This document shows positions 20,346 to 51,937 of a DNA stretch of 53,950 nucleotides, piece by piece. The translations under genes and the position numbers were made by a program. Source of the DNA: Bacteroidales bacterium (GTDB lineage Bacteria > Bacteroidota > Bacteroidia > Bacteroidales > WCHB1-69); NCBI GenBank assembly GCA_016281255.1, contig JAEEIG010000170.1:1-53950 (forward strand), written 5' to 3'. Position 1 is the stretch's first letter; each line of letters begins with the position of its first letter. A model generated the notes under the pieces. It was given only the letters and a program-made list of their open reading frames with translations, was not told the DNA's origin and searched no databases.

Positions 20346-21182
20346 ATGAAAATTTGCGTTATCGGTACAGGTACCATGGCCAAAGGTATTGTAAAGGCTT
20401 TCGCCGCCAAGATGCCCGTGGTCATGAAGAGCAGAACCCAAGCCAGCCTCGACAAGGCAATGGGTTCTATTTCAAAAGGTTATAGCAAACTGGTGGAAAA
20501 AGGCAAGATGACCCAAGAGGCTGTCGATGCTTTGTTGAAGAATATCACCACCACCACGGACTACGCCACATTTGCAGATGCAGACCTCGTGATTGAAGCC
20601 GCTGTAGAGGAAATGCAGCTCAAAAAGGACGTCTTCATGGAATTAGACAAAATCTGCAAACCGGAGACGATTTTCGCCACCAACTCCTCTTCTTTGTCCA
20701 TCACGGAGATTGCCGCCTGCACGAGCCGTCCCACGAAATTCATTGGCTGCCACTTCTTTAACCCCGCCGACAGAATGGCATTGGTGGAGGTCATCAAGGG
20801 TCAGCTCACCTCGGACGAGACGGCCAAATGCATCGTGGATCTGACCACCGAGATTGGCAAGACCCCCGTTCCCGTGAACGAAGCACCCGGTTTCGTGGTG
20901 AACCGCATCCTCATCCCGATGATCAACGAGGCTGTGGGCATTCTGGCCGACGGCATCGCAAGCGCCGAGGACATCGACAAGTGCATGATGTTGGGTGCCA
21001 ACCACCCCATGGGCCCGCTCGCTTTGGCCGACCTCATCGGCAACGACGTGAACCTGGCCATCATGGAGGTGCTCTACAAAGAGTTCGGTGACCCGAAGTA
21101 TCGTCCTCACCCGCTGTTGCGCAAGATGGTCCGCGCCGGACTGCTTGGCCGCAAGACTGGCGAAGGATTCTACAAATACTAA
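20346..21182 (+). CDS. hbd: 3-hydroxybutyryl-CoA dehydrogenase
   Basis: [58 protein letters not shown]. Confidence 0.93.
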
Positions 21183-21196
21183 AATCGAACGAAAAC

Positions 21197-21234
21197 AAAA
21201 ACACCCTCGGAGTTATCCGGGGGTGTTTTCTTTT
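21197..21234 (+). terminator. Terminator hairpin after hbd
   Basis: AAAACACCCTCGGA-GTTA-TCCGGGGGTGTTTT followed by CTTTT. Confidence 0.8.
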
Positions 21235-21246
21235 GGGTTTACAGGC

Positions 21247-21421
21247 TTACTTGTCGTTTTTTGGTTTCCACCTACTCGCTTCAGCATTATTTGAACTTAC
21301 TTCGATGGTGATAGAATCTCCAACTTGACGGTCACCATAGAATGATGCTATTCCTTGTATCGTTTGATTTTTGGGCGACTGCCTTTTTATGTTTCTTTTT
21401 ATGTTTATGTTTCTTTTTCAT
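21247..21421 (-). pseudogene. Internally deleted, frameshifted small gene remnant
   Basis: ATG at 21421 gives MKKKHKHKKKHKKAVAQKSN. A different frame gives IQGIASFYGDRQVGDSITIEVSSNNAEASRWKPKNDK-TAA (stop 21247-21249). The span of 175 nt is not a multiple of 3. Confidence 0.45.
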
Positions 21422-21532
21422 ATGATATTATTATGGTGCAGAGGCGAGTCGTGATGTGCAATGTAGTGTCGTACTTGTTCGATGTTCATTTATATGCTCC
21501 TACGCCTGCGAAAACTCGCATTTTGCCGGTTA

Positions 21533-22444
21533 TCACCAGCGAAGCCAATCCTTGCGGCCACGCAATTTGTCTATCAGGGTCGGTTTGGTCACGGGCTTTT
21601 GGAATTCGAAGTTGCCGGAGTAATTGATGTAGCCATGCGTGTCACCGATTCTGGCGTAAGCAAGCCCTTCGGAAAATATGTTCAGATTGTCGAACTTTGC
21701 ATCTACCAACAAGTTACCCTCTTTGTCGATGATTCCATATTTCCCGTCCATCTCCACTCTAGAGTATCCCTCGTAGAGCGGCATGACATAATCGAATCGG
21801 TCGCCAAGCCGAGTCACTTCAGCCCCATTTTTGTCAATAAAACTCCAAACGCCATCTTTATTGACTGGAGCCACCCCTTCGGAAAAGGACTCCGCTTCAT
21901 CGAATTGAGGTTGGATGACAAAACGCCCTGTGGTGTCGATGAAGCCGCTTTTGCCATCCTCGGTCAAAGTCACCAATGCCAATCCATCGATAAACGGAAA
22001 CGCCATGAAGAATTTCGGTTCAATCACCATCTTTCCCGAACGATCAATAAAGCCGTTGTTGTTGAAACCAACTTCGGCAGTAGCCAGTCCGCAAGAAAAC
22101 AGTCCCACATCCGTGTATTCCTCACCGAAATCAACGACCACGTTTCCAGCCTTGTCGATGATTTGGAGTTGGTTTTCGATTTGAACCGTCGCAAGCCCCT
22201 CGGAAAAAGCAAGGGCAAAGTCATATTTCGGCTCCAACACCATCGTACCGTATCGGTCGATGAATCCGTATTTATTCTTAACGGCCACTGCGGCCAAACC
22301 TTCTGAGAAACCGTCTGCTCCCGTAAACTTCGGCTCAATTTCAACATTTCCATTACGATTGATAAACCCCATGTGGTTTTTGATAACCACGGCAGCCATT
22401 CCTTCGGAGAAAACCCACGGACTGCCAATAATAGCACTATTCAT
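21533..22444 (-). CDS. WG-repeat (KWG) protein, 8 repeats, no signal peptide
   Basis: Eight repeats of about 35 aa, FSEGLA.V....KYGFID..G..VIEPKF. Confidence 0.9.
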   Translation of the reverse strand: MNSAIIGSPWVFSEGMAAVVIKNHMGFINRNGNVEIEPKFTGADGFSEGLAAVAVKNKYGFIDRYGTMVLEPKYDFALAFSEGLATVQIENQLQIIDKAGNVVVDFGEEYTDVGLFSCGLATAEVGFNNNGFIDRSGKMVIEPKFFMAFPFIDGLALVTLTEDGKSGFIDTTGRFVIQPQFDEAESFSEGVAPVNKDGVWSFIDKNGAEVTRLGDRFDYVMPLYEGYSRVEMDGKYGIIDKEGNLLVDAKFDNLNIFSEGLAYARIGDTHGYINYSGNFEFQKPVTKPTLIDKLRGRKDWLRW

Positions 22445-22642
22445 GATACAAAATTTTGAAATTTCTGTTTTTTTATTTCCTCAAAAGCGTTCATCACATT
22501 TGTTCACCCACCTTGGGTCGCAAAGATACTATCTTTGTTTATTGGTATGGATACAAAAAAGTCAAAAGGTTGCAGTTTGTTGAAAAATATTTATTTCGAG
22601 AACTCCGCAAGCGGAATGCTAATGTTGACCGGGGATTCCCTT

Positions 22643-22746
22643 TAACCTTCTAACCTTTTAACCCTTTAACCGCCTAACCGTGTAAACCTGTAAACCCGTA
22701 AACCTGTAAGCCTGTAAACCTGTAAACCCCTAAGCCTGTAAACCCA
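22643..22746. repeat. Degenerate 8-bp tandem repeat, 13 units (consensus TAAACCTG)
   Basis: taaccttc taaccttt taaccctt taaccgcc taaccgtg taaacctg taaacccg taaacctg taagcctg taaacctg taaacccc taagcctg taaaccca. Confidence 0.9.
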
Positions 22747-22785
22747 AGACGCCCTCGGAGAATTTTCCGAAGGCGTTTTGTTTTT
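22747..22785. terminator. Hairpin, probable terminator, related in sequence to the hbd terminator
   Basis: ACGCCCTCGGAGAA-TTTTCCGAAGGCGT-TTTGTTTTT. ACGCCCTCGGAG matches ACACCCTCGGAG (21201-21212) at 11 of 12 positions. Confidence 0.65.
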
Positions 22786-22792
22786 CCACCAG

Positions 22793-22900
22793 CATCTGGT
22801 ATCCGGTATCCGGTCTCCTGCAAATGTTTTGCGATTTTTGGGGTTAGTCTGCGGAAATCTGCGAGGTCTGTGAGCAATATGGTCGGTGGTGGGTCATTGG
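22793..22900. repeat. Short degenerate 7-bp and 9-10-bp tandem repeats
   Basis: catctgg tatccgg tatccgg tctcctg (22793-22820); TCTGCG/TCTGTG at 22848, 22858 and 22867; tggtcgg tggtggg. Confidence 0.55.
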
Positions 22901-22913
22901 CAGAGGCAAACTG

Positions 22914-25900
22914 TTATCGTTTCACCACTCGCTTGGTGACAGTGCCTTGTTCGGTGATCACACGTACGAAGTAGATGCCGGAAGCACGGGAAGATAAGTT
23001 GATATCTATTTGATAATCATCTACTTGAATAATGTCCAGTTCTTTTCCGAAAACATCAAACACCTCTACTTGATCAATGAGAAATTCTTCGCTGCGGATG
23101 GTGCATTTGCCAGTTGTGGGGTTGGGGAGAACATTGATCGACATGTCAAGCTGATGTGGCGCAATACCAACAGAATCAGTGTCGGAAGGATGTATATACG
23201 ATATTACTATATTGTCCATCCACATGAACCAATTGTAGTTTTGTGGGTAATACCGGAATGCGATGTGATTTCCCGTTCCGGAAATATTTGTTAAGTCGAA
23301 ATCTACCACTTCGTCAGTCCAGCTTCCAGTGATTTCTCCTGCTTCAATGGTACGAACAAGTTCGAAACTGTTTTCATCGGCAGTACTATTCAGCACACCT
23401 ACTTCAAGACGGCCTGAATTTCCCGATTCAGCAAGCATTTGGAAAGAGGCCCGTACATCATGCAGTTCCACATCTAATCGGGGCATCACGGCCATCAGCA
23501 TATCCCCTGCATTATCTGTCCTGAGCCAGAGTGAATGCGAGCCGCCCACATAGTTATGAGTTACTTGGATGCTAGCATTTTCAGGGAAGAAAATATCCGG
23601 GTAAGCCCATGAGGTATACGGGAAAGACCAGCAACGGGGACGAGCGAATTCGTTGTAATACCAAGGTTGGAAGTAGTTTTCGAAGTCTTCCACGTAAGGC
23701 AGGTGAGTTATTGTGGTACATGTTGTAGTAAAAGCTACGGGCACGCTCCACCCACTTGTTTCACCATTGTCACAGTTGGCTTTGACATACACATCGTACC
23801 ATTTCCCAAACTCTAGATTGTTTATATGATACGGTTTTGATGTTACGGTGGTAATCATGGCTTGGGACATAGGTGCTTCATGTAACTTCACTGCGACTTG
23901 CCAAGAGGTTACCTCGCTTTCGGAGATCCAGTCTATATCGGCTGATTGATCCGTGATATTGGTGACGCTAATGTCGTGTGGCAGTGGGCATGTTGAGTGC
24001 TAAAGCAGCACATTGTCAAGGTACCCATAACCACGTAGTGCTATGTAATGACCGTTGCCAGTGTAGTTGTGCAGATGCACTTTTTTTTCTGCCCAATGCT
24101 CCACTTGGTGGTACTCTAATTGCATGGTGTCCACTGGAGTGAAAGTGGTTGCATCTTCTGGATCATCCATTACACCTACGATAAGCATGGCTGCGGGGTC
24201 GTAGGTTTTGTATTGGAAGGAAATTTGTAGTTCGTTGATAGGTGTTGCTGGATCTATTTCAGGCAGGATTGCAAAGCTGTTGTATCCGGATGGGAAGACC
24301 ATCATGCCAGGAGTACTGTAGGTGTGGTCGTAATGACCTGGAGTGTACAGATCAATATAAGGGTAATTGCTTGATGTGGTACTTAATCGTTGCCAGCACC
24401 GTGGGAAACTTGCAGTTTCATACGTATCAAAATTGTCAGAATAGGGGAATGATGAAATGTAACCGCAGTCGGTTCGCTGAGAAATGGGTTGAGACCAATA
24501 ACTGTACTCGCTATTGTTGCACAAAGCGCGAATATAAAGGTCGTATGAGTAATCATTTATCAGATTTTGGAATGTGAATATCGTATCCGTCAGGGTGATC
24601 AATTGTGATGGATTAATGGCGGACCCAGTAGGGACGAGAGCCGCTTCCCAAACACTGTCTAAAGGTGAAGATGGGGTAAAGTGAATTGTGATGGTGTGTG
24701 CAGTCACGGAATCCACCGTGATGTGCGTTGGAACGCCACAAAGACAACCTTGTATGGACACGTTGTCCACTGCGGCAGGTGGGTTGGAAACGTTGTATTC
24801 AGTATTGGTCCACAAGAAGTAGAGGCGCTTCACCCCTTGGAACGTGGTGTCAGCTGTAAAGGTGAAATGACTCCAGCTGGGTTGTCCGTAGAAATCGTTT
24901 CCAATTTGCACCGCGCCCGTGGGAACAGCATAAGATATTGAGCCTCCGGGACCTGCATAATCCACAGGGGTCACGGGTGGCCCTATGAACACCTTCATCC
25001 ATGCAAAATCGGCATTCCCTTGCACCCGATAATCAAAAGAAATCTCATATCCTGAATACGAAGGATCAAAATAAAAATCCCGAAATGCCCAGCATCGATA
25101 GATGTTAGTAGTGAAACAGGCATTGGAAACACCATTGTCGTTGGAAATGTATAAAGCTGAATCCCCTGACTGATAAGCAGCATGACCAATGAACCAGCCA
25201 GTGGGCCAGGTGGAATTGGTATAGGTCAACGATGTCCAGTGACTATTTTCTTCTGCATCTTCGAAACCATGAGCGTATGGAATCCTGCCCAATATCGAAT
25301 GTGTCTGATAAGTTTCCTGATTGCTCCAAAAACTTGTCTCACCATCAGAGCAGAGGGATTTCACTTTCCAAGTATAGAAAGAGGAAGGCTCAAGATTCGT
25401 CATTTGATAGGATGTCTCTGTAGTGAGCACTTCTGTAAAAGCACTGTCTGTCAATGCTTTGAATGCTACGATAAATGTATCCGCGTCAGAATGCCATGTT
25501 AGAGTGGCAGCATCATCAAGAATGTTGACTGTGGCTAACTGCATGGGAATGGGGCAACTAGAGGTGCTGATTTGGATATTGTCCACGGCGCCTGGCGGAT
25601 TCGTACCTTCAACATAATCGTTTTTCCACAAGAAGAAAAGGCGTTGTATGCCTGCATGAGTGGAGTCTACGGTGAAAGTAACAGTGTTCCATATAGAATC
25701 GTTTACATAATCACCACCTAATTGCGTGGAGCCTTGAGGTGCTATATTAAAGTAAGAATTACTTTGATAAGCGGGAGGCGTAACAGGCGGTCCAAGATAA
25801 ACATTGAGTCTATCGTAAGGCAAATTACTAAATACCTCCCCAAAACTGCGAACATCAAACGTAATATGATACTCAGGATGTCCTGGGGTGAAATAAAAAT

Positions 25901-28900
25901 CTCGGTAAGCCCATACATGGGAAGTAGAATTGACACTGTAGGCATTGGTGGCACCATTATCGTTGGAAACATACAGCGAGTTGCTGCCTCCATTATTCGT
26001 TGCATTGCCTATGTGCCAAATATTCGTGTAGGTTCCGTTTACAAATGTCCATTGATTGTTCTCAACAGTGTCCTCAAAATCGCAAATATAGGGTAATCGT
26101 GCGGTGTTTTCAGATGTTTGGAAGGAGGATTCTGCAGACCAGAAGCTATGGTCAGTGGCAGTGCAGTTGGTCCGCACTTTCCAAACGTATGTGGTCAGTG
26201 GGGCGAGATTGCCAACGGTGACATACTGATCAGGAACTGTTAGATAAGTATATGCTGAATCGTTTGGAAGTTTATAAGCAACAGTATAGGAATCGGCACT
26301 CCCGTTAGCCAACGTCCACGACAAATTAGCAAGTGTGTCCATTACTTGTGCGGTCAATGCAGTAGGAACATGGGCACAATAGAATCCAGTAATAGAGATG
26401 TTGTCAATATAAGCAGGAGAAGAAACGTTGTTGTTGTAACCATAATATTGAAAATATAATCGTTGTAATCCTTTGTGGGTAGAGTCAATCACCATTGTTT
26501 TTGTTTGCCAAATGCAAGTGTCTTGGAATATTGTTGTAAGTTCGGTAGCTCCTGAGACAGTTGTGCCACCAGGAATCGTAGGTGTTCCGATGAAAACTCG
26601 TACATATTCATTGTTTGCAGCATTGCTCAAGCCATAGAAATCAAAAGTTAGGGCGTAGCCGTTATATGTGGAATCAAAGAAAATGTCGCGATAAGCCCAA
26701 TAGACGTGGCTGACCGGATTGTTGTCGTTAACGTAAAGAGCATGTTCACCGTCTCCGCTGATAGAATTTCCTATTTGCCAATTCACGTAACCAGTAGAGA
26801 TTGTGCTGGTGCGAAATGTCCAAGCTGCATTTTCTGTTGCATCCTCAAAATCACAGAAATAGGGCGTTTGAGTGGGAGTCTCGAATGTCTGCTCAGTACT
26901 CCACTCGCTCTGTCCATCCTCGCCGCATGAGCTTCGTACCTTCCATACGTACTTGGTAAACGGGGTGAGAGTGTTGAGGGTGCAAAATGTGTCAGCAACC
27001 GTGATTTCTTGATATTCCTGAACGTCATAGGGACGGTAGGCCACAATGTAGGAAGTGGCATCACCGGTCCAGGACAAAGTTTGCGCGTTGCCGCTGACCA
27101 TTGATGAAGTTAAATTTTGAGGCAAGGAACAATGAGAACCCACAATCGAGAGGTTATCCAAAGCGGCGGGCGGCTGAATGCCATTGGAGTTGTTGTTAAC
27201 CCACAAGAAATAGATGCGTTGCACGCCAGCGTAGGTGGAATCCAGCTCGTAAGCGTAATGTGCCCAATCGTTCACCTCCGAGAGTTTGCTAACCAACGGC
27301 ACCGCACCTTCCGGCGTAGCAGTGCCAGATGGAGCAGATGGTGTACCCACAAACACTTTCATGTAGTCAGCCGTATTTTGTCCCATGCCCTTGTAATCGA
27401 AAGATAATTGATAAACTAAATGGTTTTCGTCGAAATAGACATCGCGGTACGCCCACACGGACGAGGTTGAGGTGATGGTATAGGCATTGGTCGTACCACT
27501 GTCGTTGGAGATATAGAGGGCGTTGTTATCACCGTAGCCAGTGGCATTGCCTATCACCCATTGGTTCACGGCATTGCCGTTCGCTAATGTCCAATGGCTG
27601 TTTTCGGTCGGGCTGTCGAAGGGACAGAGGTATGGTAAGTGTGTCGGCGTTTGCGTAGTGGTGAAGAATGCATCGCTGCTCCATTCGCTGGTGTCAGAAG
27701 TGCTGCAAATAGAACGTACATGCCATATATAATCGCTACTCGGAATAAGTCCTGGAACCGTGATGGTCGTGTCCTGTGTGGTTAATTCCGTATAAACCGA
27801 ATCGCTCAACACCTTGTAAGCCAATATGAAAGAAGATACGATACCGGCACTTCCAGACGACCAAGCAAACGTGGAAGTAGTGTCTTGCGGATTAGAGGTC
27901 AAGTTGCTGGGCACTCCGCAAGTCACCCCATTGATGGAGATATTGTCAATAGCAGCAGGAGGGTTGGCACCCGTCCACAGGTTGTTGGTCCATAAAATAT
28001 AAAGACGTTGCGCACCCGCATGGGTGGAGTCTATTGTGAAACTTTTATGCGTCCATTGGCTTATAAGATTAAGATCTTCCCCTATTTGAACTAAAGGAAC
28101 AGGAAGATCGCTTTGTAGAGGAGGAAACAAAGGAGTGTCTAAGAACAGTCTCACATAATCATTTCCTTCCTCACCCATTCCTTTGAAGTCTAACGAAAGC
28201 TGATATTCAGGATATCCAGGGTCAAAATAAATGTCACGATATGCCCAGACGTATGCGGGGGGACCATACTCGTAACTATTGGTAACCCCGTTGTCGGATG
28301 ATATGTACAGCATTTTATTGTTGTCGACGATTTCGGAAGGGGTTCCAATATACCACTTGTTGGTATGGTTTGAGTAGTATCCGGAGCTACCATTACTATA
28401 GTCTCCGATGCGGATGGTCCAGTGCTGATTTTCTAGTTCATTATCAAAATCACAGAAATAGGGAAGCTGCGCCAATGTCTTGAAAGCCATCTCGCCACTC
28501 CAGTCGCTCCATTCGTTGTCTGAATATAATGCTTGTACTTTCCAAACATACCATGAAGAGGTTCCTAAGTTGGCGAGAGTGTATGTTGTGTCGGAGGCAG
28601 ACAAAAGTACCTCTGTATAAGTTGAATCAGACTGGGAGCGCCATGCCAGACGATAGGAAAGCGGAGTCTCGGAAGAGTCGGATGTCCAGGATAACTGCGC
28701 AGAATGATAGGTGATATCGGTAGTTGTCAAATCAACAGGGGGCTCGTGAAAAATACCTTTGATGGAAATATTGTCAAAAGCGCCAGCGGGATTCCAAGTG
28801 GTGTTGTATTCAAACCGAAGACGCAATTGATGGTAACCAGAAATGGATGAATCTACGATGATGCTTTGACGAGTCCAGAACCCGGCATTACTTAGATGAT

Positions 28901-31664
28901 TACTCAAGAGTGTTTCATCCAGGAATATCTGCATAACTCCCGTTTCGTCGCCTCCTCCTTTACAGTCAAAGGAGATTAGGTATTTCGGATACTCAGGAGT
29001 GAAACAAATGTTGCGTAAGGCCTCAGGATTAGTCGAATTCGGTGTGTAACTATTGGTAACACCGTTGTCTTTTGAGATATACAATGAGTGCCCCTCGTTA
29101 TACGCAACTGCATTGCCGATATATGTTTTATTACTACCACTATTGGGAGTGAGCTGCCAGATAGCGTTCTCCACCGAATCTTCAAAATCACAGAAATAGG
29201 GTAGAATAGCTATCGGAAGTTTAGTCGTGAATGATAGGGGATCACTCCAATAACTACCGGTCGAATCTGAACAATGCGAACGCACACTCCATACGTAGGA
29301 TGTTGTAGAATTCAGACTGCCAATCCGGAGCACCGTGTCGTTGGTTTGAACTTCCGTATAGGCAGTGTCGCCAGTGGATTTGTATGCCACCGTATAGCTG
29401 TCGGCTCCAACGGGTTCCCAAGCAATGAGTGCGAAGGTGTCTTGCACGCTAATGTTTTGCAAATTGTGAACGCGCGGACAGGCGTTTCCTACAATGGAGA
29501 GATTGTCAATGGCTGATGCTGGGTTACGCGACCACATAGCGCGACAGCTGCCGAAATAGATGCGTTGAACTCCTGCAAAGGTTGAATCCACCAGGAAAGT
29601 GTAATGCTTCCAGATAGTGTCTGAATCAAAATAAGTGAGGAGGATGCTTCCAGGTGGTGTCTCTGTATCGACGGTTAGCGATTCGTAAGGCGGTCCGATC
29701 ATTACCTTTGGAGTTGTCCACGTATCCACAATTCCCTTGTAATCAAAGGAGATTTGATAATCAGCATAGCCAGGAGGAAGTTGGATGTCGCGATAAGCCC
29801 AAATGGTCTTTAGACTATTACTATAACTTACCCCGCTTATCGCATTTGTGATGCCTCCATCATTGGAAACGTACAGCGCTTGGTCTCCAGATTGTGCGGT
29901 AGCAGAACCAATGTACCATCCGTTTATCTCCATGTTTACCATCCGCCAATAGTGGTTCTCTAACGAGTCTTCAAAATCGCAGAAGTACGGGAACTCGGCG
30001 ATGGGGGGCTCGGTCTTGAACTGTATCGTCTCACTCCAGTCGCTTTGGTCGGTGGATGAGCAGTGGGCTCTTACTTTCCATTCGTACTGGGTGTAAATAT
30101 CTAATCCCGTTAATGTGAATGATGTGTCTGTCAACGTGATTGTTGTGAAATCGGAATCGTCTAAGGTTCTATATGCCAGTGTGTAATAGCTTGCGGCTCC
30201 GATTAAGGGCGTATGCCAAGTGAGAACAGCCGAACCCGTGTCAATGTTTGTGGTGGTCAGTTGTTCAGGCATGGCACAGGTGAAACTCTCAATGGTGATG
30301 TCGTCAATGGCACCTGGTGGGTTAGAAATATGAGTGTTGTTATTACTCCAGCAGAAATAGAGCCGATAGACTCCCTGATAAGTTGAATCCAGCAGGAAAG
30401 AATAGGTTTTCCAATTGCTTTGATTGAAAATGTCGCTGCCTAACTTCACTGCTCCGGTGGGCGCATTAGTGGTGTTATTTCCGGGGGTGGCAGGCGGACC
30501 GAGATAGACTTTCATCAATCCGTGATTCATGTTGTTGTAATAACTGTGGTTTTTGGCCACAAAAGATAACCTATGACCGGCATATATGGAGTCGAAGTCA
30601 ATATCTCGGTAAGCCCAAATGTAGGTCACCCCAGATGTGTAACCATAGGAAACACCTTGGTTGTAAGAAACATACATTGAATGGGTTCCGCTGTATTGGG
30701 TCGCCGTACCTACCCACCATTTGTTCGGACCATTGCCGTTGAGGAAAGTCCATTGAGAAGATTCCTCTGCATCTTCAAAGTTACAAACATAAGGTACATG
30801 AGCGATAAATGGAGGTAAGGATACCGATACACCGCTTTTCCAATTGCTGGTATCACCATCATTACAGACGGAACAAACTCTCCATTGTAGAGTGGAATTG
30901 TACGCTATATTATTGACAGTAAAGAAAGTGTCGGTCAATGTGACGTTCGTAAAAATAGTATCAGTAGCAGTTTTGTATTCCAAAACATAATGCTGAGAAG
31001 TAATGTAAGGGCTTGGAGACCAAGTCAGGAGTGCTGAAGTGCCGTTTAATTCAGCATGAGTATTTATGGGTCTAAAACAACCATTGCTGACGTAGTTGAA
31101 AGTCAATATCGGGAGAGAGGACGAAGCGTAGTTAAGACCCGAAGAGAGGTAAGTAAGGTAGGACACCTGTTGAGGTTGACTCATTCCTTTGATCGTTGCC
31201 TCTTTCCAATTAGCCGCAACTGGATTCTCGAACTCTATCAGTAAGTTGCCGCCCATATAGAGGAAGGGATCGTCTAACGTAATGTGCATCTGATTGTTAG
31301 AGATGTTCGATGAGAGTGTGCCAGTCCATACTAACGCGGAGGGTGAGTCAAGGAGACCATTCTGCAAGTCAGTGGCGTTGGTGGTACCGATTCTCACGAG
31401 TTGCGTGCCTCCCCACGAACCATTTGGGGGTGTCTCGAAATAGTAAGTGAGCTCCGTGATATAGTTCCCAATCATGTCTGTCAACAGTGAATCTGGATAG
31501 ATACTTTGCGAACGCTGAACGAAATTCATACGAATTCCATAGACAGGGAAATGACTTTCGGCAATATCCGAACTGTCTGGGCTACAGGGAACAGTAAGGG
31601 TCTGTGCATTCAATCCTGCCATCAGGATCATCGCAATTGCTAATGTCGTAATATGTTTTTTCAT
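22914..31664 (-). pseudogene. Giant modular T9SS cargo protein (10 FN3 + 10 beta-sandwich modules + C-terminal sorting domain), 2916 codons, interrupted by one in-frame TAG at 24000-24002
   Basis: Signal peptide at 31664. ORFs 24000-31664 and 22914-23891 share a frame and the 36 codons between them are open and continue the module pattern (YLDNVLL*HSTCPLPHDISVTNITDQSADIDW). CTD motifs LPNPT..EVFDVFGK..SGIYFVRV..TKRVVKR. Confidence 0.88.
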
Positions 31665-31733
31665 AACTATATAAATTTCTCTATGTTTTTCCTAACCAAC
31701 CTTTTAAGGCGTTATTGCTCTGTTTTCTCTCGG

Positions 31734-31741
31734 CAAAAATA
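31734..31741 (-). promoter_or_regulatory. -7 box (TATTTTTG) of the giant cargo gene
   Basis: TAnnTTTG match about 70 bp upstream of the ATG and about 30 bp from the IS left end. Confidence 0.55.
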
Positions 31742-31772
31742 CATTATTTTTCGAGAATTATGAATTTTGAAT

Positions 31773-32351
31773 CACTACTGTCCCGTTAAAGTGGACTAAT
31801 CGTTATTTGAAATCGCTGAAATAAAGTCTTTTACGAGTGGTTTTAAGAGCGCGACGATTTGAATTTGTAATTTTGCAGTCAAACAGATTGACTGCAAAAT
31901 GAATAAAGACAAATATGTATTCGCCCAATTGATAGAGTTTCTGAACAATGACAAGTTCCGTCGCCTTGTTGACAAGTATGATGGGAACCGTTATGTCAAG
32001 CATCTCACCTGCTGGAACCAGCTTCTTGCACTGATGTTCGGGCAACTCAGCAACCAGACTTGATAGTGGCCTTCGAAGCCCATCAGTCAAAGTGTTTCCA
32101 CCTCGGTTTAGGTAGTTAGTGCAGCCATCACTGCCTACTGCCTCGTGGCGATTGTACAGCATGATATGCAGTTGAAGCGCTCGACCTATGAAGTCTTGCA
32201 AATCCTCAGCATATCACTCACGGACAAGACACCGCTTAGAGAACTGTTCGATAAGACTTATTCCAATGATGTCAAAGAGCAATTAGATCCCCTTATTCCG
32301 GGGTTGTTTGATTAATAATTAACTCGTCCCGATTTTAACGGGACACTAATG
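31773..32351 (+). mobile_element. Internally deleted IS4-family element (DUF4372-type transposase remnant), 579 bp, with intact terminal inverted repeats
   Basis: TIRs CACTACTGTCCCGTTAAA (31773-31790) and TTTAACGGGACACTAATG (32334-32351), 16 of 18 complementary. From 31899: MNKDKYVFAQLIEFL..KHLTCWNQLLALMFGQLSN, then a frameshift, then a junction near 32115 to the C-terminus AITAYCLVAIVQHDMQLKRSTYEVLQILSISLTDKT..GLFD* (32315). The DDE core is missing. Confidence 0.9.
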
Positions 32352-32723
32352 ATGTACACACAATCATAAAACTTAATAAAACCTTTTTCGTCATAAATAT
32401 TTTTTTTTGTTAGGCAAATATAATCACGAAAACACTTATCTTTCACAAAAAAAACGCGATTTCGTCCCTTGGGACGTAATTGTGACAAAAAAACAATTAT
32501 TAAATAATGAGAATATAGGAAATATTTGATTGTCAATCCCTTATTCACTTTGAGCTCTTGTTTATATATTCGTTTTTGAATCTATATTTATTACACTATT
32601 TTTCAAAAATCATACAATAACAGCATCGAAAAGAGGCAGTATACACTCCAAAATGACAATATAACTTTCCTTGTTTTGCAAATTTTAGTAATTTTGCCGC
32701 AGAACGGTAAAAATCAATAAACT

Positions 32724-33806
32724 ATGCAATCTTTCAAAAAAACAATTCCCTTGATCACAGGACAGGTAGTGTTCTTTGCGCTCTTCTTTTGGTATTTTCT
32801 TCAGTATAATTTTTTACGTCCATATACAGGTACTTGGGTGGAATGCCTCATAGCCTCAATATTGATAGTGATAATGACCACCAATTTTTGGATTGTATAT
32901 CCCTACATCATTAAGAAGCACACTTACTTCGTTTATTTGTTCGTTTCGCTTTTTGAATCCTTAGTCATCAACGTCATAGAGTATTTGGTAACATATCAAT
33001 CTTCCTTGGCAATTTATGGAGATATTATCCAGCAGGTGGAACATTCAACGATGTTCTTGTTGCCTATGTATTTCAACACCTTTTTGCGAGATTTTGCACT
33101 TTTGGTTTTTGTAGGATTGGTCGCTGACAACATACAACTCTCTGAGAGACAAATCGAAAATGACCAAGAACTGCTTCGTTCTAAAAACCAACTCATGGTC
33201 AGGGATGAAGGGAAGACATGCGTGATTGACATGGCCCCCATATATCTATGCCGTCAGGAAAAAAACTATGCAATACTCTATTCTATTAACGGTCGGAGAT
33301 ATAAAAAAAGAATTTCGCTTAAAAATTTGGAGGATTTATTGAAAGCTCAACAGTTCATCAGAATATCCAAAAGCGATATCATACGTCTTTCATCCATCAA
33401 AAAATGCGAAAACAATTTGCTGATACTCAAAGACACGGTGGTTACCAACACAAAAGCTATTGCTATCAGCAAGTCATTCGTGGAAAATGTTGTTCCTACC
33501 ATTCTGCAATTCCTTCAAAACGAGTTAGAATCGGAGCCAGTTCGGGATAGTCCATTGGAGGAAGAACAGCAGCAGGCAGCCGTTGCCGAACCAGATAGCC
33601 CAATGCTTAATCCAAAGGCCACAAAAATCAAAAGGTACGTTTCGTCCCACCGAGACTGCAAACTGGATGATATCGTTTCTGCTACCAAAATCCCGAAAAG
33701 CACTGTAACCCGCTACCTGAAGGAGCTACAGCAGGACGGCCTCATCGAGTACGTCGGCAGCAAGAAGACAGGCGGCTACAGGGCGGTAGAGAAAAGGGAA
33801 ATGTAA
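32724..33806 (+). CDS. Membrane-anchored LytTR DNA-binding protein with C-terminal winged HTH
   Basis: About four N-terminal TM helices; LytTR motifs EKNYAILY, RISLKNLEDLL, FIRISKSDII; C-terminal IPKSTVTRYLKELQQDGLIEYVGSKKTGGY. -7 box TAATTTTG at 32689-32696. Confidence 0.85.
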   Translation: MQSFKKTIPLITGQVVFFALFFWYFLQYNFLRPYTGTWVECLIASILIVIMTTNFWIVYPYIIKKHTYFVYLFVSLFESLVINVIEYLVTYQSSLAIYGDIIQQVEHSTMFLLPMYFNTFLRDFALLVFVGLVADNIQLSERQIENDQELLRSKNQLMVRDEGKTCVIDMAPIYLCRQEKNYAILYSINGRRYKKRISLKNLEDLLKAQQFIRISKSDIIRLSSIKKCENNLLILKDTVVTNTKAIAISKSFVENVVPTILQFLQNELESEPVRDSPLEEEQQQAAVAEPDSPMLNPKATKIKRYVSSHRDCKLDDIVSATKIPKSTVTRYLKELQQDGLIEYVGSKKTGGYRAVEKREM

Positions 33807-33808
33807 CC

Positions 33809-36301
33809 TCACGCATCAACATTCACCACGCAGCGGACTTGCTTGAACTGCGGGTTCTGCTTGAACTGGCGCAACACCTCACGAAGCTGCTGTTTCTTGG
33901 TGGCCAGCGTGTTGTCACGGGACATCTTGATCCAGAAATCCTGCAAGAAGTAGTTCTGGATGCGGGAGACCAACGGGGCGGCAGGCCCCATGACATTGCC
34001 GGCGAACACTTCGCGCAACATGCCCTGCAGCTGCTGGGCAGCCGCCATAACGGTCTGCTCCTCAGTGTGTTTCAACGTGATTTTCACCATGCGGGTGATG
34101 GGCGGCAAACGGAACTGCTGGCGTTCGGCAATCTGACTGGTGTACATCGCCATAAAGTCGTTGGACTCCACATAGCGCAACGCCGGATGGTGCGGCTGGA
34201 AGGTCTGGATGACCACCTTTCCCGGCACCTCCTTGCGCCCCGCGCGACCACTCACCTGCGACAACAGCTGGAACGCCCGCTCGAAAGCCCGGAAGTCGGG
34301 GAAGGAGATCAGCGCGTCGGCATTGAGGATGCCGACCACACTCACGCGGTCGAAATCCAACCCCTTGGTCACCATCTGCGTACCGACCAAAATATCCGTT
34401 TTGTGTTGCTCGAAATCGGTGATAATCTGCTGGTAGGCGTTCTTCGAGCGCGTGGTGTCCGTGTCCATGCGGGCAATGCGGGCCTCAGGGAATATCGCAG
34501 CCAATGTGTCTTCAACCTGTTCTGTACCAAACCCTTTCATCTCAATATCCGTACTGTGGCATGTGGGGCACTCGTGCGGCACCTCAATGGCATAACCACA
34601 ATAGTGGCACTTCAGCAGGTTGGTCTTCTTATGGTAGGTCAGCGTCACGTCGCAATACTGGCACTTGGGCATCGACTCGCAGGTGTGGCAGATCATGCGC
34701 ACCGCGTATCCGCGCCTGTTCTGGAAGAGGATAATCTGCTCCTGGCGTTCCAACGCCTGCGCCATCTGCTCAATCAGGAAGTGGGAGAACAGCCCCTGCA
34801 CCTCATGGCGCTTGGTGGCCAAACTCATGTTAACGGTGTAGATATCAGGAAGATGACTGTCGGCATAGCGCTGCATCAGCTCCACCAAACCGAACTTGCG
34901 GAGCTGTACGTTGTAATAGCTCTCCAACGACGGGGTGGCCGTACCCAAAAGCGTTTTCGCCCCATGAATCTGCGCCAACATCACGGCGGCATCGCGGGCG
35001 TGGTAACGAGGAGCGGGATCCATCTGCTTGTAAGATCCGTCATGTTCCTCGTCCACGATCACCAGTCCCAACTCTTTGTAAGGCAGCAACAAAGCCGACC
35101 TTGCTCCGAGAATCAACTGGTATTTGGAGGTGTCGTCCTGCTCGCCGCCGCTCAGCACGCGGTTCCAGATTTCCACCCGTTCGTATTCGTTGAAGCGGGA
35201 GTGATACACCCCTACCCTATCCCCGAAATATTTCCGCAACCGATTGACTATCTGAGAAGTGAGCGCGATTTCGGGCAACAAGTACAACACCTGTCTCCCC
35301 TGTTTCAGCACCTCGTCAATCAGCTTGATATAGATTTCCGTCTTGCCGCTGCCGGTAACGCCATGCAGCAACGTAACGGGATAATGTTCGAAACTCTGCT
35401 TGATTTGCCGGAAGGCAGTCTCTTGCGGAGCCGAAAGCGCCACTTCCGCCGTCTGGTCCGTGGCAAATTCGGCCAATCGGGAAATCACCCGTTCTTCCGA
35501 CTGCAAAACACCCTTTTTGAGCAACGTCTGCAGACTGCTCTGGCTGGCATGCTCCCCTTTCAACAGTTCCGCTTTGGGGACAGCGGCATCGAAATGGTAG
35601 CGGTTGTTTTGGCGGGTCTGCATCATAAAGCCCAGCAGTGTGTCGGCCTGCGAGGAGGTTTGGGGCTTCGCATTGAGCCGGTCGAGCAGCGCCATGAACT
35701 CGGCTTCCTGATCATAGGGCGGTGCCAACTTTACAACCGTCTCCTTCTTGGGTTTATAAGGATTCCGAATCTCCTCATCGGTGATAATCGCCCGTTTGTC
35801 CACCAGCGACTTGATGATGGGCATCACCTTGGCCACCTGCAGGTTCTTCGCGACATCGGCCACGGTCATGGTCTCGCGATGGATCAGCAACTCCACAACG
35901 TTGAGTTCGTAGGGAGTGAGCACGGAGACGTCGCCGTCGAATTCGGGATGGATTTTGACCTTGGTTTCGCTGGCGAGCCGCAAGGCGGAGGGCAGCGCGG
36001 CGGCCATCACCTCGCCTATGGTACACATGTAGTAGTCGGCAATCCACTGCCAGAGGCGGTATTGTGCCTCGGAGACCACGGGGCGGTCGTCGATGACATC
36101 CAGCACATACTTGACGGTGAACTGTTTGGGCGCGTTTTCATGCACTTTCTCCACAATGGCAGCATAAAGCTTGTTGTTGCCGAAGGGGACGATGACTCTC
36201 ATGCCAAATGCCAATTTGCCATTCAGCACCTGCGGCACGCGGTAGGTGAAACGCGCCTCGATGGGCAACGGCAAAATCACATCCACAAAGAAAGTCTGCA
36301 T
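33809..36301 (-). CDS. priA: Primosomal protein N' (replication restart helicase)
   Basis: LLHGVTGSGKTEIY, LPEIALT, VDEEHD.SYKQ, QNRRGY, four CxxC pairs, GTQMVTKGLDF, QVSGRAGR. Confidence 0.97.
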   Translation of the reverse strand: MQTFFVDVILPLPIEARFTYRVPQVLNGKLAFGMRVIVPFGNNKLYAAIVEKVHENAPKQFTVKYVLDVIDDRPVVSEAQYRLWQWIADYYMCTIGEVMAAALPSALRLASETKVKIHPEFDGDVSVLTPYELNVVELLIHRETMTVADVAKNLQVAKVMPIIKSLVDKRAIITDEEIRNPYKPKKETVVKLAPPYDQEAEFMALLDRLNAKPQTSSQADTLLGFMMQTRQNNRYHFDAAVPKAELLKGEHASQSSLQTLLKKGVLQSEERVISRLAEFATDQTAEVALSAPQETAFRQIKQSFEHYPVTLLHGVTGSGKTEIYIKLIDEVLKQGRQVLYLLPEIALTSQIVNRLRKYFGDRVGVYHSRFNEYERVEIWNRVLSGGEQDDTSKYQLILGARSALLLPYKELGLVIVDEEHDGSYKQMDPAPRYHARDAAVMLAQIHGAKTLLGTATPSLESYYNVQLRKFGLVELMQRYADSHLPDIYTVNMSLATKRHEVQGLFSHFLIEQMAQALERQEQIILFQNRRGYAVRMICHTCESMPKCQYCDVTLTYHKKTNLLKCHYCGYAIEVPHECPTCHSTDIEMKGFGTEQVEDTLAAIFPEARIARMDTDTTRSKNAYQQIITDFEQHKTDILVGTQMVTKGLDFDRVSVVGILNADALISFPDFRAFERAFQLLSQVSGRAGRKEVPGKVVIQTFQPHHPALRYVESNDFMAMYTSQIAERQQFRLPPITRMVKITLKHTEEQTVMAAAQQLQGMLREVFAGNVMGPAAPLVSRIQNYFLQDFWIKMSRDNTLATKKQQLREVLRQFKQNPQFKQVRCVVNVDA

Positions 36302-37474: not shown

Positions 37475-37506
37475 CATCATCGCATCATCCCATCATCCCA
37501 TCATCG
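37475..37506. repeat. 8-bp tandem repeat x4 (CATCATCS) abutting the phosphorylase stop codon
   Basis: catcatcg catcatcc catcatcc catcatcg, then TCA (stop codon on -). Confidence 0.8.
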
Positions 37507-51746: not shown

Positions 51747-51937
51747 TTCAGGATTCAGGATTCAAGATTCAGGATTCAGGACAGGGCTTTCGCATCCATG
51801 TTTTTATTTGGGCGAGCCGGCGCGGCGGGAGCCGATGCGATGTGGCCGAAACCGCGTCTCTCAGGTGTTTGGGCAAGTTGGTACGCAAGCCCTATAACTC
51901 CATTCACTATTCACTATTCACTATTCACTATTCACTA
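51747..51937. repeat. Two heptamer arrays (TTCAGGA x5 and TTCACTA x5) flanking a 111-bp GC-rich segment with inverted ends
   Basis: 51747-51781 TTCAGGA x5 (one unit TTCAAGA); 51903-51937 TTCACTA x5; core AGGGCTT (51783-51789) ... AAGCCCT (51887-51893). Confidence 0.85.

Follow-up and report, generated by a model that had tools for sequence, protein, structure and literature searches.

Heptameric short tandemly repeated repetitive (STRR) sequences were reportedly described by Mazel in 1990 in heterocystous cyanobacteria, and a survey by Mrazek in 2007 is said to have found heptameric long simple sequence repeats (SSRs) over-represented in prokaryotes. Among the closest described systems are the GGGAATC heptamer of Xanthomonas and the GGGGAYT heptamer of Nostoc, both of which form dispersed tandem arrays of one unit that lie mostly in intergenic DNA near a neighboring open reading frame (ORF) and that vary in length and sequence between close relatives with the site being kept; the GGGAATC arrays also often occur as convergent pairs on opposite strands, 70 in Xcc and 75 in Xac (Rehm et al. 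2015, PMC4692102). In Beggiatoaceae, Cyanobacteria and some Bacteroidetes, direct repeats of TAACTGA likewise form abundant intergenic arrays of a 7-nt unit with a patchy phylogeny and no known mechanism, and most of these arrays lie in one orientation, a few nucleotides upstream of a start codon (MacGregor 2015, PMC4679880). Here we compare with these systems a locus in contig C208 of the Bacteroidales assembly G000 (2.40 Mb, 225 contigs, 82% complete); the whole stretch of 53,950 nt that was analysed is referred to as the window. Between the genes hbd and one for a protein with a type IX secretion system (T9SS) tail, a perfect 17-nt inverted repeat built from an octamer encloses a WG-repeat gene and a broken small gene, a segment that the initial annotation had taken for a possible cassette moved in trans or an invertible element.

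The arrays of this genome fit the published and still unexplained class of heptamer-type long simple repeats, the features of which, namely head-to-tail units of 7-8 nt, dispersed intergenic sites, convergent pairs, and kept sites with varying length and sequence, are all found here. With the Xanthomonas and Nostoc heptamers the arrays share the dispersed intergenic location, the convergent pairs and the kept sites of variable length, whereas the unit here is 8 nt long and poor in G-tracts, with one GG or GGG per 8 nt, G-quadruplex tracts being a feature of that subclass only, many unrelated unit families coexist in one genome, and sister species have different units at one and the same site. 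The abundance of short-unit arrays in intergenic DNA, their patchy distribution and the lack of a mechanism are common to TAACTGA, but the arrays in G000 lie behind terminators and upstream of promoters and also form inverted pairs. The STRR heptamers belong to the same general class of short tandem units filling intergenic DNA, represented here in another phylum and with an 8-nt period.

The explanation that we favor, with a probability of roughly 65%, is that the 17-nt inverted repeat consists of the heads, i.e. the first two units, of two separate members of an intergenic (RGGYTTAS)n family, which have ordinary accessory DNA between them, at the margin of a variable island. On this reading the WG segment itself is not a self-contained moving or inverting element.

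The octamer family and the two arms

The octamer family is dispersed genome-wide, and both the number and the sequence of its units vary at conserved sites. The strict pattern identifies 74 arrays of at least two units in G000, 47 of them with 3-27 units, an abundance of the kind that the initial annotation had itself named as counting against its proposal; in the reversed genome, against which the array counts were controlled, the same pattern gives 13 two-unit matches and none of three or more. A looser chain finder detects 123 octamer arrays compared to 39 in the control, and 71 of the 74 chained arrays lie outside crude ORFs. Tandem Repeats Finder (TRF) reports 470 arrays of period 7 (359) or 8 (111) in G000 (e.g. 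on C83, C62, C72, C91 and C122), which add up to 19.4 kb and include a dozen common units. The comparison genomes, all uncultured rumen Bacteroidales metagenome-assembled genomes, show how restricted the family is: overlapping three-unit matches to the strict octamer number 76 in G000, 57 in G005 and 3 in G002, and the other 38 of the 41 genomes searched have none. Related telomere-like units are present in other species of the genus, as GGTTTAA in G021, GGTTAGAG in G009 and AGGGTTAC/ACGGTTAA in G016. At C83:1386-1473, an array of 11 units in G000 is represented by 6 units in G005 and is split in G002, and at one orthologous site (C83:8107-8693 in G000, C87 in G005) even the unit length differs between the sister species. 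Array heads follow a T-rich octet in 15 of 46 cases, as compared to 3.6% of random positions.

Both arms of the inverted repeat are recognizable as members of this family, and the initial annotation described them accurately. The arms, 21233-21249 and 22731-22747, are 17 nt long and 100% complementary, and enclose the WG gene together with the broken gene, the TAA stop codon of which lies inside the left 17-mer. The left arm is TT followed by two octamer units, which are all that the left array has, and the right arm is the head of the longer array, whose period of 8 is evident both from nine in-register copies with a spacing of 8 across 22635-22744 and from TRF (22639-22679 and 22676-22744). 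At up to three mismatches the 17-mer has five matches in the window compared to 0.13 expected, and at up to two mismatches it is found at 17 places in the genome and none in the control; there are only three perfect and seven one-mismatch copies genome-wide, the third perfect one being located at C216:1449, where an unrelated gene starts 11 nt away. The arms form a convergent same-family pair of 2 and 13 units that lies 0-190 nt from genes. Read on the minus strand, the long array passes from homogeneous RGGYTTAC units beside hairpin 2 to a degenerate RAGGTTAR tail; RAGGTTAR is the unit type of other species of the genus, and the tail can, by its sequence, be assigned to an older telomere-like unit type. 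In the metagenome contigs L147 and L148, which match the window arrangement at 98.9-99.6% identity, the left arm is identical and the octamer array is shorter.

The stunted two-unit array starts directly after the predicted terminator of hbd, and the 13-unit array begins right behind hairpin 2, which lies downstream of the T9SS-tail gene on the minus strand; since hbd and the T9SS-tail gene are convergent, the two arrays face each other. The DNA between them comprises an accessory WG gene, its putative promoter and the remains of a small ORF, and the entire stretch forms the left end of a 12.6-kb island that is variable among both species and strains. The arrays presumably grow and shrink by replication slippage and may spread or be homogenized by recombination, and as dispersed homologous patches they could favor the gain, loss and exchange of adjacent DNA.

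In other species and in the window itself further arrays of this general kind were noted. A single array in G021 (C23:47742-48490, L034 1243-1991) consists of about 102 GGTTTAA heptamers over 750 nt with a 45-nt higher-order period, and further arrays adjoin it; in the window, other arrays with a 7/8-nt period are present at 37475-37505, 51747-51781 and 51902-51937, with the units CATCATCC, TTCAGGA and ATTCACT.

The variable island and its breakpoints

Rearrangements have their breakpoints at the heads of arrays and at the stop codons of genes. The comparison covered 54 other genomes of the genus and 80 species loci around hbd, and, at the strain level, DNA runs X1, X2 and X6 from three studies and the metagenome contigs L147 and L148, i.e. 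five independent assemblies. On the left, synteny extends over approximately 16-20 kb and stops exactly at the stop codon of hbd, the window being collinear with G005:C191 and G002:C10 up to position 21182; the window sequence 21183-24000 has no shared sequence in the 80 species loci. The end of hbd in G002:C10 is at about position 1202, and positions 1-984 hold the 3′ end of priA, equivalent to window 33799-34783. The two genes are thus only 217 nt apart in G002, and the entire intervening DNA of the window therefore constitutes a 12.6-kb variable island (Table 1), both boundaries of which fall at stop codons. Judged by these alignments, the left breakpoint between species is the hbd stop codon and not the repeat, with hairpin 1 on the variable side.

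Between strains, L147 and L148 remain homologous to the window as far as the outer end of the right array; three CAACGGT units and a different plus-strand gene follow there, with neither hairpin 2 nor the T9SS-tail gene. Run X6 gives the same picture, in that its record 31 departs from the window sequence beyond 22720 and its record 32 contains 65 non-matching letters ahead of 22915; the right junction of the window is present in runs X1 and X2 (records 7 and 23). Since the homology between strains ends at the array head in L147, L148 and X6, the array head is a true breakpoint between strains. An empty site on the right side could not be derived from the T9SS-tail homologues in G016 and G002 (42-43% amino-acid identity), the loci being too rearranged: one homologue is found beside dprA and a (TTAGCAG)n array, the other beside a GT28 (MurG-type) gene.

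The WG gene is accessory: homologues are found in 3 of the 54 other genus genomes, G049 (85% identity), G007 (66%) and G065 (65%), none of them beside hbd. The G049 homologue has other neighbors, with no arrays or hairpins around it, and the homology ends at the WG stop codon. The small ORF of 127 aa is intact in L148, and the window copy is its 209-nt deletion derivative. The region 22517-22616 is a putative minus-strand promoter module of the WG gene, as suggested by copies of 92% identity that lie upstream of unrelated genes on the minus strand of G060:C9 and G021:C3; its -7 box is labelled after TAnnTTTG, which we take to be the Bacteroidetes -7 consensus.

Table 1 Features of the hbd-priA island and its left edge (window coordinates).
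Feature	Position	Strand	Basis and remarks
Species-variable island, 12.6 kb, between convergent hbd and priA	21183..33798		G002:C10 comparison
Island contents: flagged segment, T9SS-tail gene, 2554-aa fn3-repeat gene, IS4/DUF4372 remnant, LytTR-HTH regulator gene	21183..33798		Pfam
hbd, 3-hydroxyacyl-CoA dehydrogenase	20346..21182	+	Pfam 3HCDH_N, 3HCDH; last gene of the conserved left flank
Hairpin 1 and T-run, predicted intrinsic terminator of hbd	21198..21232 (hairpin 21198-21229)	+	Terminator scan, sequence
Left arm, TT and two octamer units (GGGTTTAC AGGCTTAC)	21233..21250	+	Stunted array 'head'; overlaps the stop codon of the small ORF
Remnant of the 127-aa small ORF, no Pfam family	21243..21420	-	209-nt internal deletion at 21340/21341 relative to L148
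WG-repeat protein gene, 303 aa, accessory	21533..22444	-	Pfam WG_beta_rep, E 3.6e-67
Putative promoter module of the WG gene, palindromic -7 box (CAAAGATAcTATCTTTG)	22517..22616	-	Copies upstream of other genes in the genus
Octamer array, ~13 units, head (GGGTTTAC AGGCTTAG ...) at 22747	22635..22747	-	In-register copies, TRF
Hairpin 2	22749..22786 (hairpin 22776-22749)	-	Terminator scan, sequence; a T-run also follows on the + strand
325-aa protein with type IX secretion C-terminal sorting domain	22914..23891	-	Pfam Por_Secre_tail

Shorter copies of the 100-nt promoter module are found across the genus. A plus-strand small RNA, running from a -7 box at 22521-22537 through the array to hairpin 2 and its T-run, was considered and set aside as less likely, the conserved 100 nt being explained by the minus-strand promoter module, and a tentative reading of 21462-21512 as the start of a YjbR/MmcQ-like gene was replaced, the remnant being explained by the 127-aa ORF of L148. 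Besides RNase P RNA at positions 1-228, Rfam gives nothing above threshold in the window, with matches only at chance level in 21100-22950; the RNase P RNA is of the bacterial class A, scores 160.5 bits on the minus strand and is cut off by the start of the window. Contigs of the RNA-library run X15, a library that may hold DNA, fall on hbd, parts of the WG gene and the T9SS-tail gene, with some bins uncovered.

Elsewhere in the island, an fn3-repeat ORF of 2554 aa without a secretion tail (24000-31664) is followed after 108 nt by a 325-aa ORF with Por_Secre_tail, and the two may be one surface-protein gene split in two; the strains differ in the surface-protein gene that adjoins the array. 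An internally deleted insertion sequence (IS) remnant at 31780-32350 comprises a DUF4372 N-terminus and a C-terminal transposase fragment and has inverted ends with GTCCCGTTAAA. Two other dispersed elements were also noted. A repeat of about 60 nt, ACAGCCTCGGAGAGGC...GCGCGAAGCGCAATTAACCCCACACAAG, occupies at least 13 sites in G000 (e.g. C26:2658, C83:11146, C119:12354) and is also present beside the WG homologue in G049:C31, and a hairpin family resembling repetitive extragenic palindromes (REPs), TGTAGAGACG...CGTCTCTACA, is intergenic in several species of the genus (L016, L017, L020; G000:C83:3650-3700).

The hairpins outside the arms

Each of the two hairpins fits as a predicted terminator of the gene upstream of it. 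The G.U wobble of hairpin 1 occurs only in plus-strand RNA and that of hairpin 2 only in minus-strand RNA; as hairpin 2 folds more stably in RNA of the minus strand (G.U in place of C.A), it is likely the terminator of the 325-aa gene. The observation that a related hairpin lies outside each arm and extends the similarity was made in the initial annotation and holds: both hairpins exist, and the end modules are related over approximately 50 nt, far above shuffled sequences, with alignment scores of 60 in the inverted and 45 in the direct orientation as opposed to 13.5 +/- 2.8 (maximum 28) in 1000 shuffles. The hairpin part without the 17-mer aligns better as a direct repeat (45 vs ~26 inverted), and the two hairpins constitute a diverged direct repeat of about 43 nt.

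Hairpin 1 is present in none of the 11 genus loci and in none of the 14 species loci shown, and in 8 of the 11 genus loci the hbd terminator is a GTGCGTCG...CGGCGCAC hairpin instead. Among the metagenome contigs, exact hairpin 1 is found in only two, L147 and L148, both representing this locus, and hairpin 2 is absent from strains of that type. The hairpins were also considered as a lineage-specific family that accompanies the arrays, a candidate rejected on the matches to the degenerate hairpin pattern, which come from unrelated phyla and in no case from a sister species. The related hairpins have probably arisen from a local duplication or conversion of a terminator-plus-head module.

Several points weigh against the explanation by two separate array heads. 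First, the replication slippage and the recombination that it invokes are inferred. Next, a perfect 17-nt match between a two-unit array and the head of its neighbor is not the rule in this genome, and only 4 of 46 arrays start beside a strong hairpin. The exact 12-mer ACRCCCTCGGAG occurs just twice in the 2.4-Mb genome, namely in the two hairpins, and the hairpin pattern has only 51 matches in 596 Gb, in unrelated taxa; given this rarity of both the 12-mer and the pattern, the two end modules are related by descent, which a pure chance juxtaposition does not explain. In addition, the right strain junction is located exactly at the outer end of the right repeat, as the boundary of a cassette would be. 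Finally, the strain-level material consists entirely of assembled contigs, in which rare variants could be missed, and an inversion or excision of low frequency could therefore escape.

Gene capture, movement and inversion

An alternative that we regard as unlikely is that the arms were once a single abutting convergent pair downstream of hbd, similar to the numerous pairs in this genome that enclose nothing, and that insertion or exchange subsequently brought the WG gene and the small ORF into its loop, the arms thereby marking a site of recurrent gene capture and not the termini of something that moves. The polarity of abutting arrays agrees with such a history. Among octamer-family neighbors within 3 kb, 13 are convergent, 3 divergent and 11 tandem, and 7 of the convergent pairs abut; when all 7/8-mers are taken together, same-family pairs that abut comprise 20 convergent and 8 tandem cases and no divergent one, and by keto skew the G/T-rich arm comes first in 21 of 65 abutting neighbor pairs and the reverse order in none, the remaining 44 having a same-sign or weak skew. 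A gain or loss between such arms is apparent at C83:8107-8693 in G000, where octamer arms (AGGYTTAC) surround a gene of the family PF05635 (23S rRNA intervening-sequence protein); the orthologous site G005:C87:7580-7680 has kept the arms as an empty AGGTTTA heptamer hairpin, the outermost units of which are complementary as in the arms of the WG segment, and G002 has no array there. Altogether, arrays stand on both sides of 6 of 10 PF05635 matches (6 of the 8 strong ones), every pair with its own unit, and an array in G002 holds an insert of about 600 nt flanked by AGGGCTTACGC / GCGTAAGCCCT.

The WG segment is only in part comparable to the bracketed PF05635 genes: its arms are convergent and of one family, but it differs in the cargo itself, which amounts to 1.4 kb with a WG_beta_rep gene, a small ORF without a Pfam family and a promoter, and in the very unequal arms of 2 and 13 units. 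No relative or strain examined has an empty hairpin at the WG site, and a gain or loss of the WG segment as a unit was seen in none of the relatives and strains compared. The initial annotation had also raised the question whether inverted copies of the repeat bracket varying cargo, and convergent arrays in this genome do so with the swappable PF05635 genes. Same-family neighbors 300-3000 nt apart are convergent in 11 cases, divergent in 5 and tandem in 16, and as PF05635 genes lie within 6 of the 16 inverted (convergent or divergent) pairs, no excess of inverted brackets is left for other genes; with about one array per 5 kb, a gene between two arrays is often expected. A literature search, with most subscription journals outside it, returned nothing that links PF05635 genes to such arrays or describes octamer arrays in rumen Bacteroidales.

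There is also a slim chance that the arrays, instead of arising passively by slippage, are left behind by a dedicated activity at DNA ends or junctions, for example an extension of 3′ ends with G/T-rich units of 7-8 nt at breaks, followed by joining and an occasional capture of foreign DNA. Such a process, if real, would account for the 21 to 0 polarity with the G/T-rich arm first on either strand, for the location of heads exactly at junctions of strain-variable DNA, for the species-specific units at orthologous sites, and for the cargo between arms, the WG segment and its duplicated ends of hairpin plus head among it; PF05635 proteins, a group related to Avd, would then be candidate partners.

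It is very improbable that the segment is a non-autonomous cassette with terminal repeats made of a hairpin and two octamers, which an enzyme with its gene elsewhere would move in trans into terminators, as the initial annotation had suggested. The relatedness of the end modules over ~50 nt, the fact that hairpin 1 is not the ancestral hbd terminator, the coincidence of the right junction with the strain breakpoint and the patchy occurrence of the WG gene in the genus would all be consistent with such an element. The inner segment 21250-22640 (1.39 kb) is, however, single-copy in the 82%-complete assembly, with partial copies of the promoter module only, there is no target-site duplication, the flanks differing at both candidate boundaries, and the left breakpoint falls at the hbd stop codon. 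Furthermore, the hairpins align better in the direct orientation, L147 and L148 retain the whole segment without hairpin 2, exact hairpin 1 in metagenome contigs is confined to this locus, and the G049 homologue lacks such ends. The empty site anticipated in related genomes did not appear, as none with these boundaries is present in the 54 genus genomes, the 80 species loci, the three DNA runs or the two metagenome contigs, and G002 is without the whole island rather than without the segment alone.

Similarities to known mobile elements are likewise partial. With miniature transposable elements of the inverted-repeat type (MITEs) and REP-type elements the segment shares the inverted ends (17 nt, perfect), the hairpins, the intergenic location and the lack of its own transposase, but it has no target-site duplication and no further inner copies, and its ends are built from a tandem satellite. 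Some likeness may be seen to an integron gene cassette, the hallmarks of which are an attC recombination site and a nearby IntI integrase, and no integrase is encoded among the island ORFs scanned. The Pfam scan of these ORFs, to which the negatives on recombinases and integrases apply, gave WG_beta_rep, Por_Secre_tail, fn3, DUF4372 and LytTR/HTH and no recombinase. The initial statement that no recombinase or transposase is encoded is accordingly correct within 21191-22787, but the same island holds the remnant of a DUF4372 (IS4-type) transposase at ~31780-32350.

All five assemblies, the three DNA runs and the two metagenome contigs, have the segment in the same orientation, and in the runs hbd is bridged to the WG gene in the orientation of the window (X2 at 21096-22582, X6 at 21146-22720, and X1 at 21128-22038 and 22013-22582), with no inverting or skipping joint spanning the segment in the three runs. 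A few joints internal to the array (22638/22698 on opposite strands, and the skips 22709/22811 and 22736/22799) were set aside, each being found in a single contig with a short side within repeat units and most likely originating from other array loci. An invertible switch that flips the WG gene between the 17-nt repeats, which was the other initial proposal, is hardly credible: the perfect inverted repeat would suit it, as would the Cytidylate_kin2 gene between convergent arrays at C62, which has the opposite orientation in G002, but there it lies within a larger insert with two extra genes and is no simple flip, no opposite-strand joint spans the WG segment, no recombinase gene was found among the island ORFs scanned, and the WG promoter is inside the segment, so that flipping would not switch the gene.

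Had the WG segment been a cassette, it would have meant a new mobile system, which the evidence does not support. For annotation, the locus implies that inverted matches of 15-20 nt around a gene are to be expected in such genomes and are by themselves no sign of mobility. The uncultured rumen Bacteroidales, in which arrays number in the hundreds and numerous strains are sequenced, provide good material for studying how heptamer-type repeats originate, a question that dates from the cyanobacterial STRRs. The locus described here is an example of how dense 7-8-nt satellites shape the genome of a gut anaerobe, marking the points at which strains and species differ and enclosing genes that come and go.

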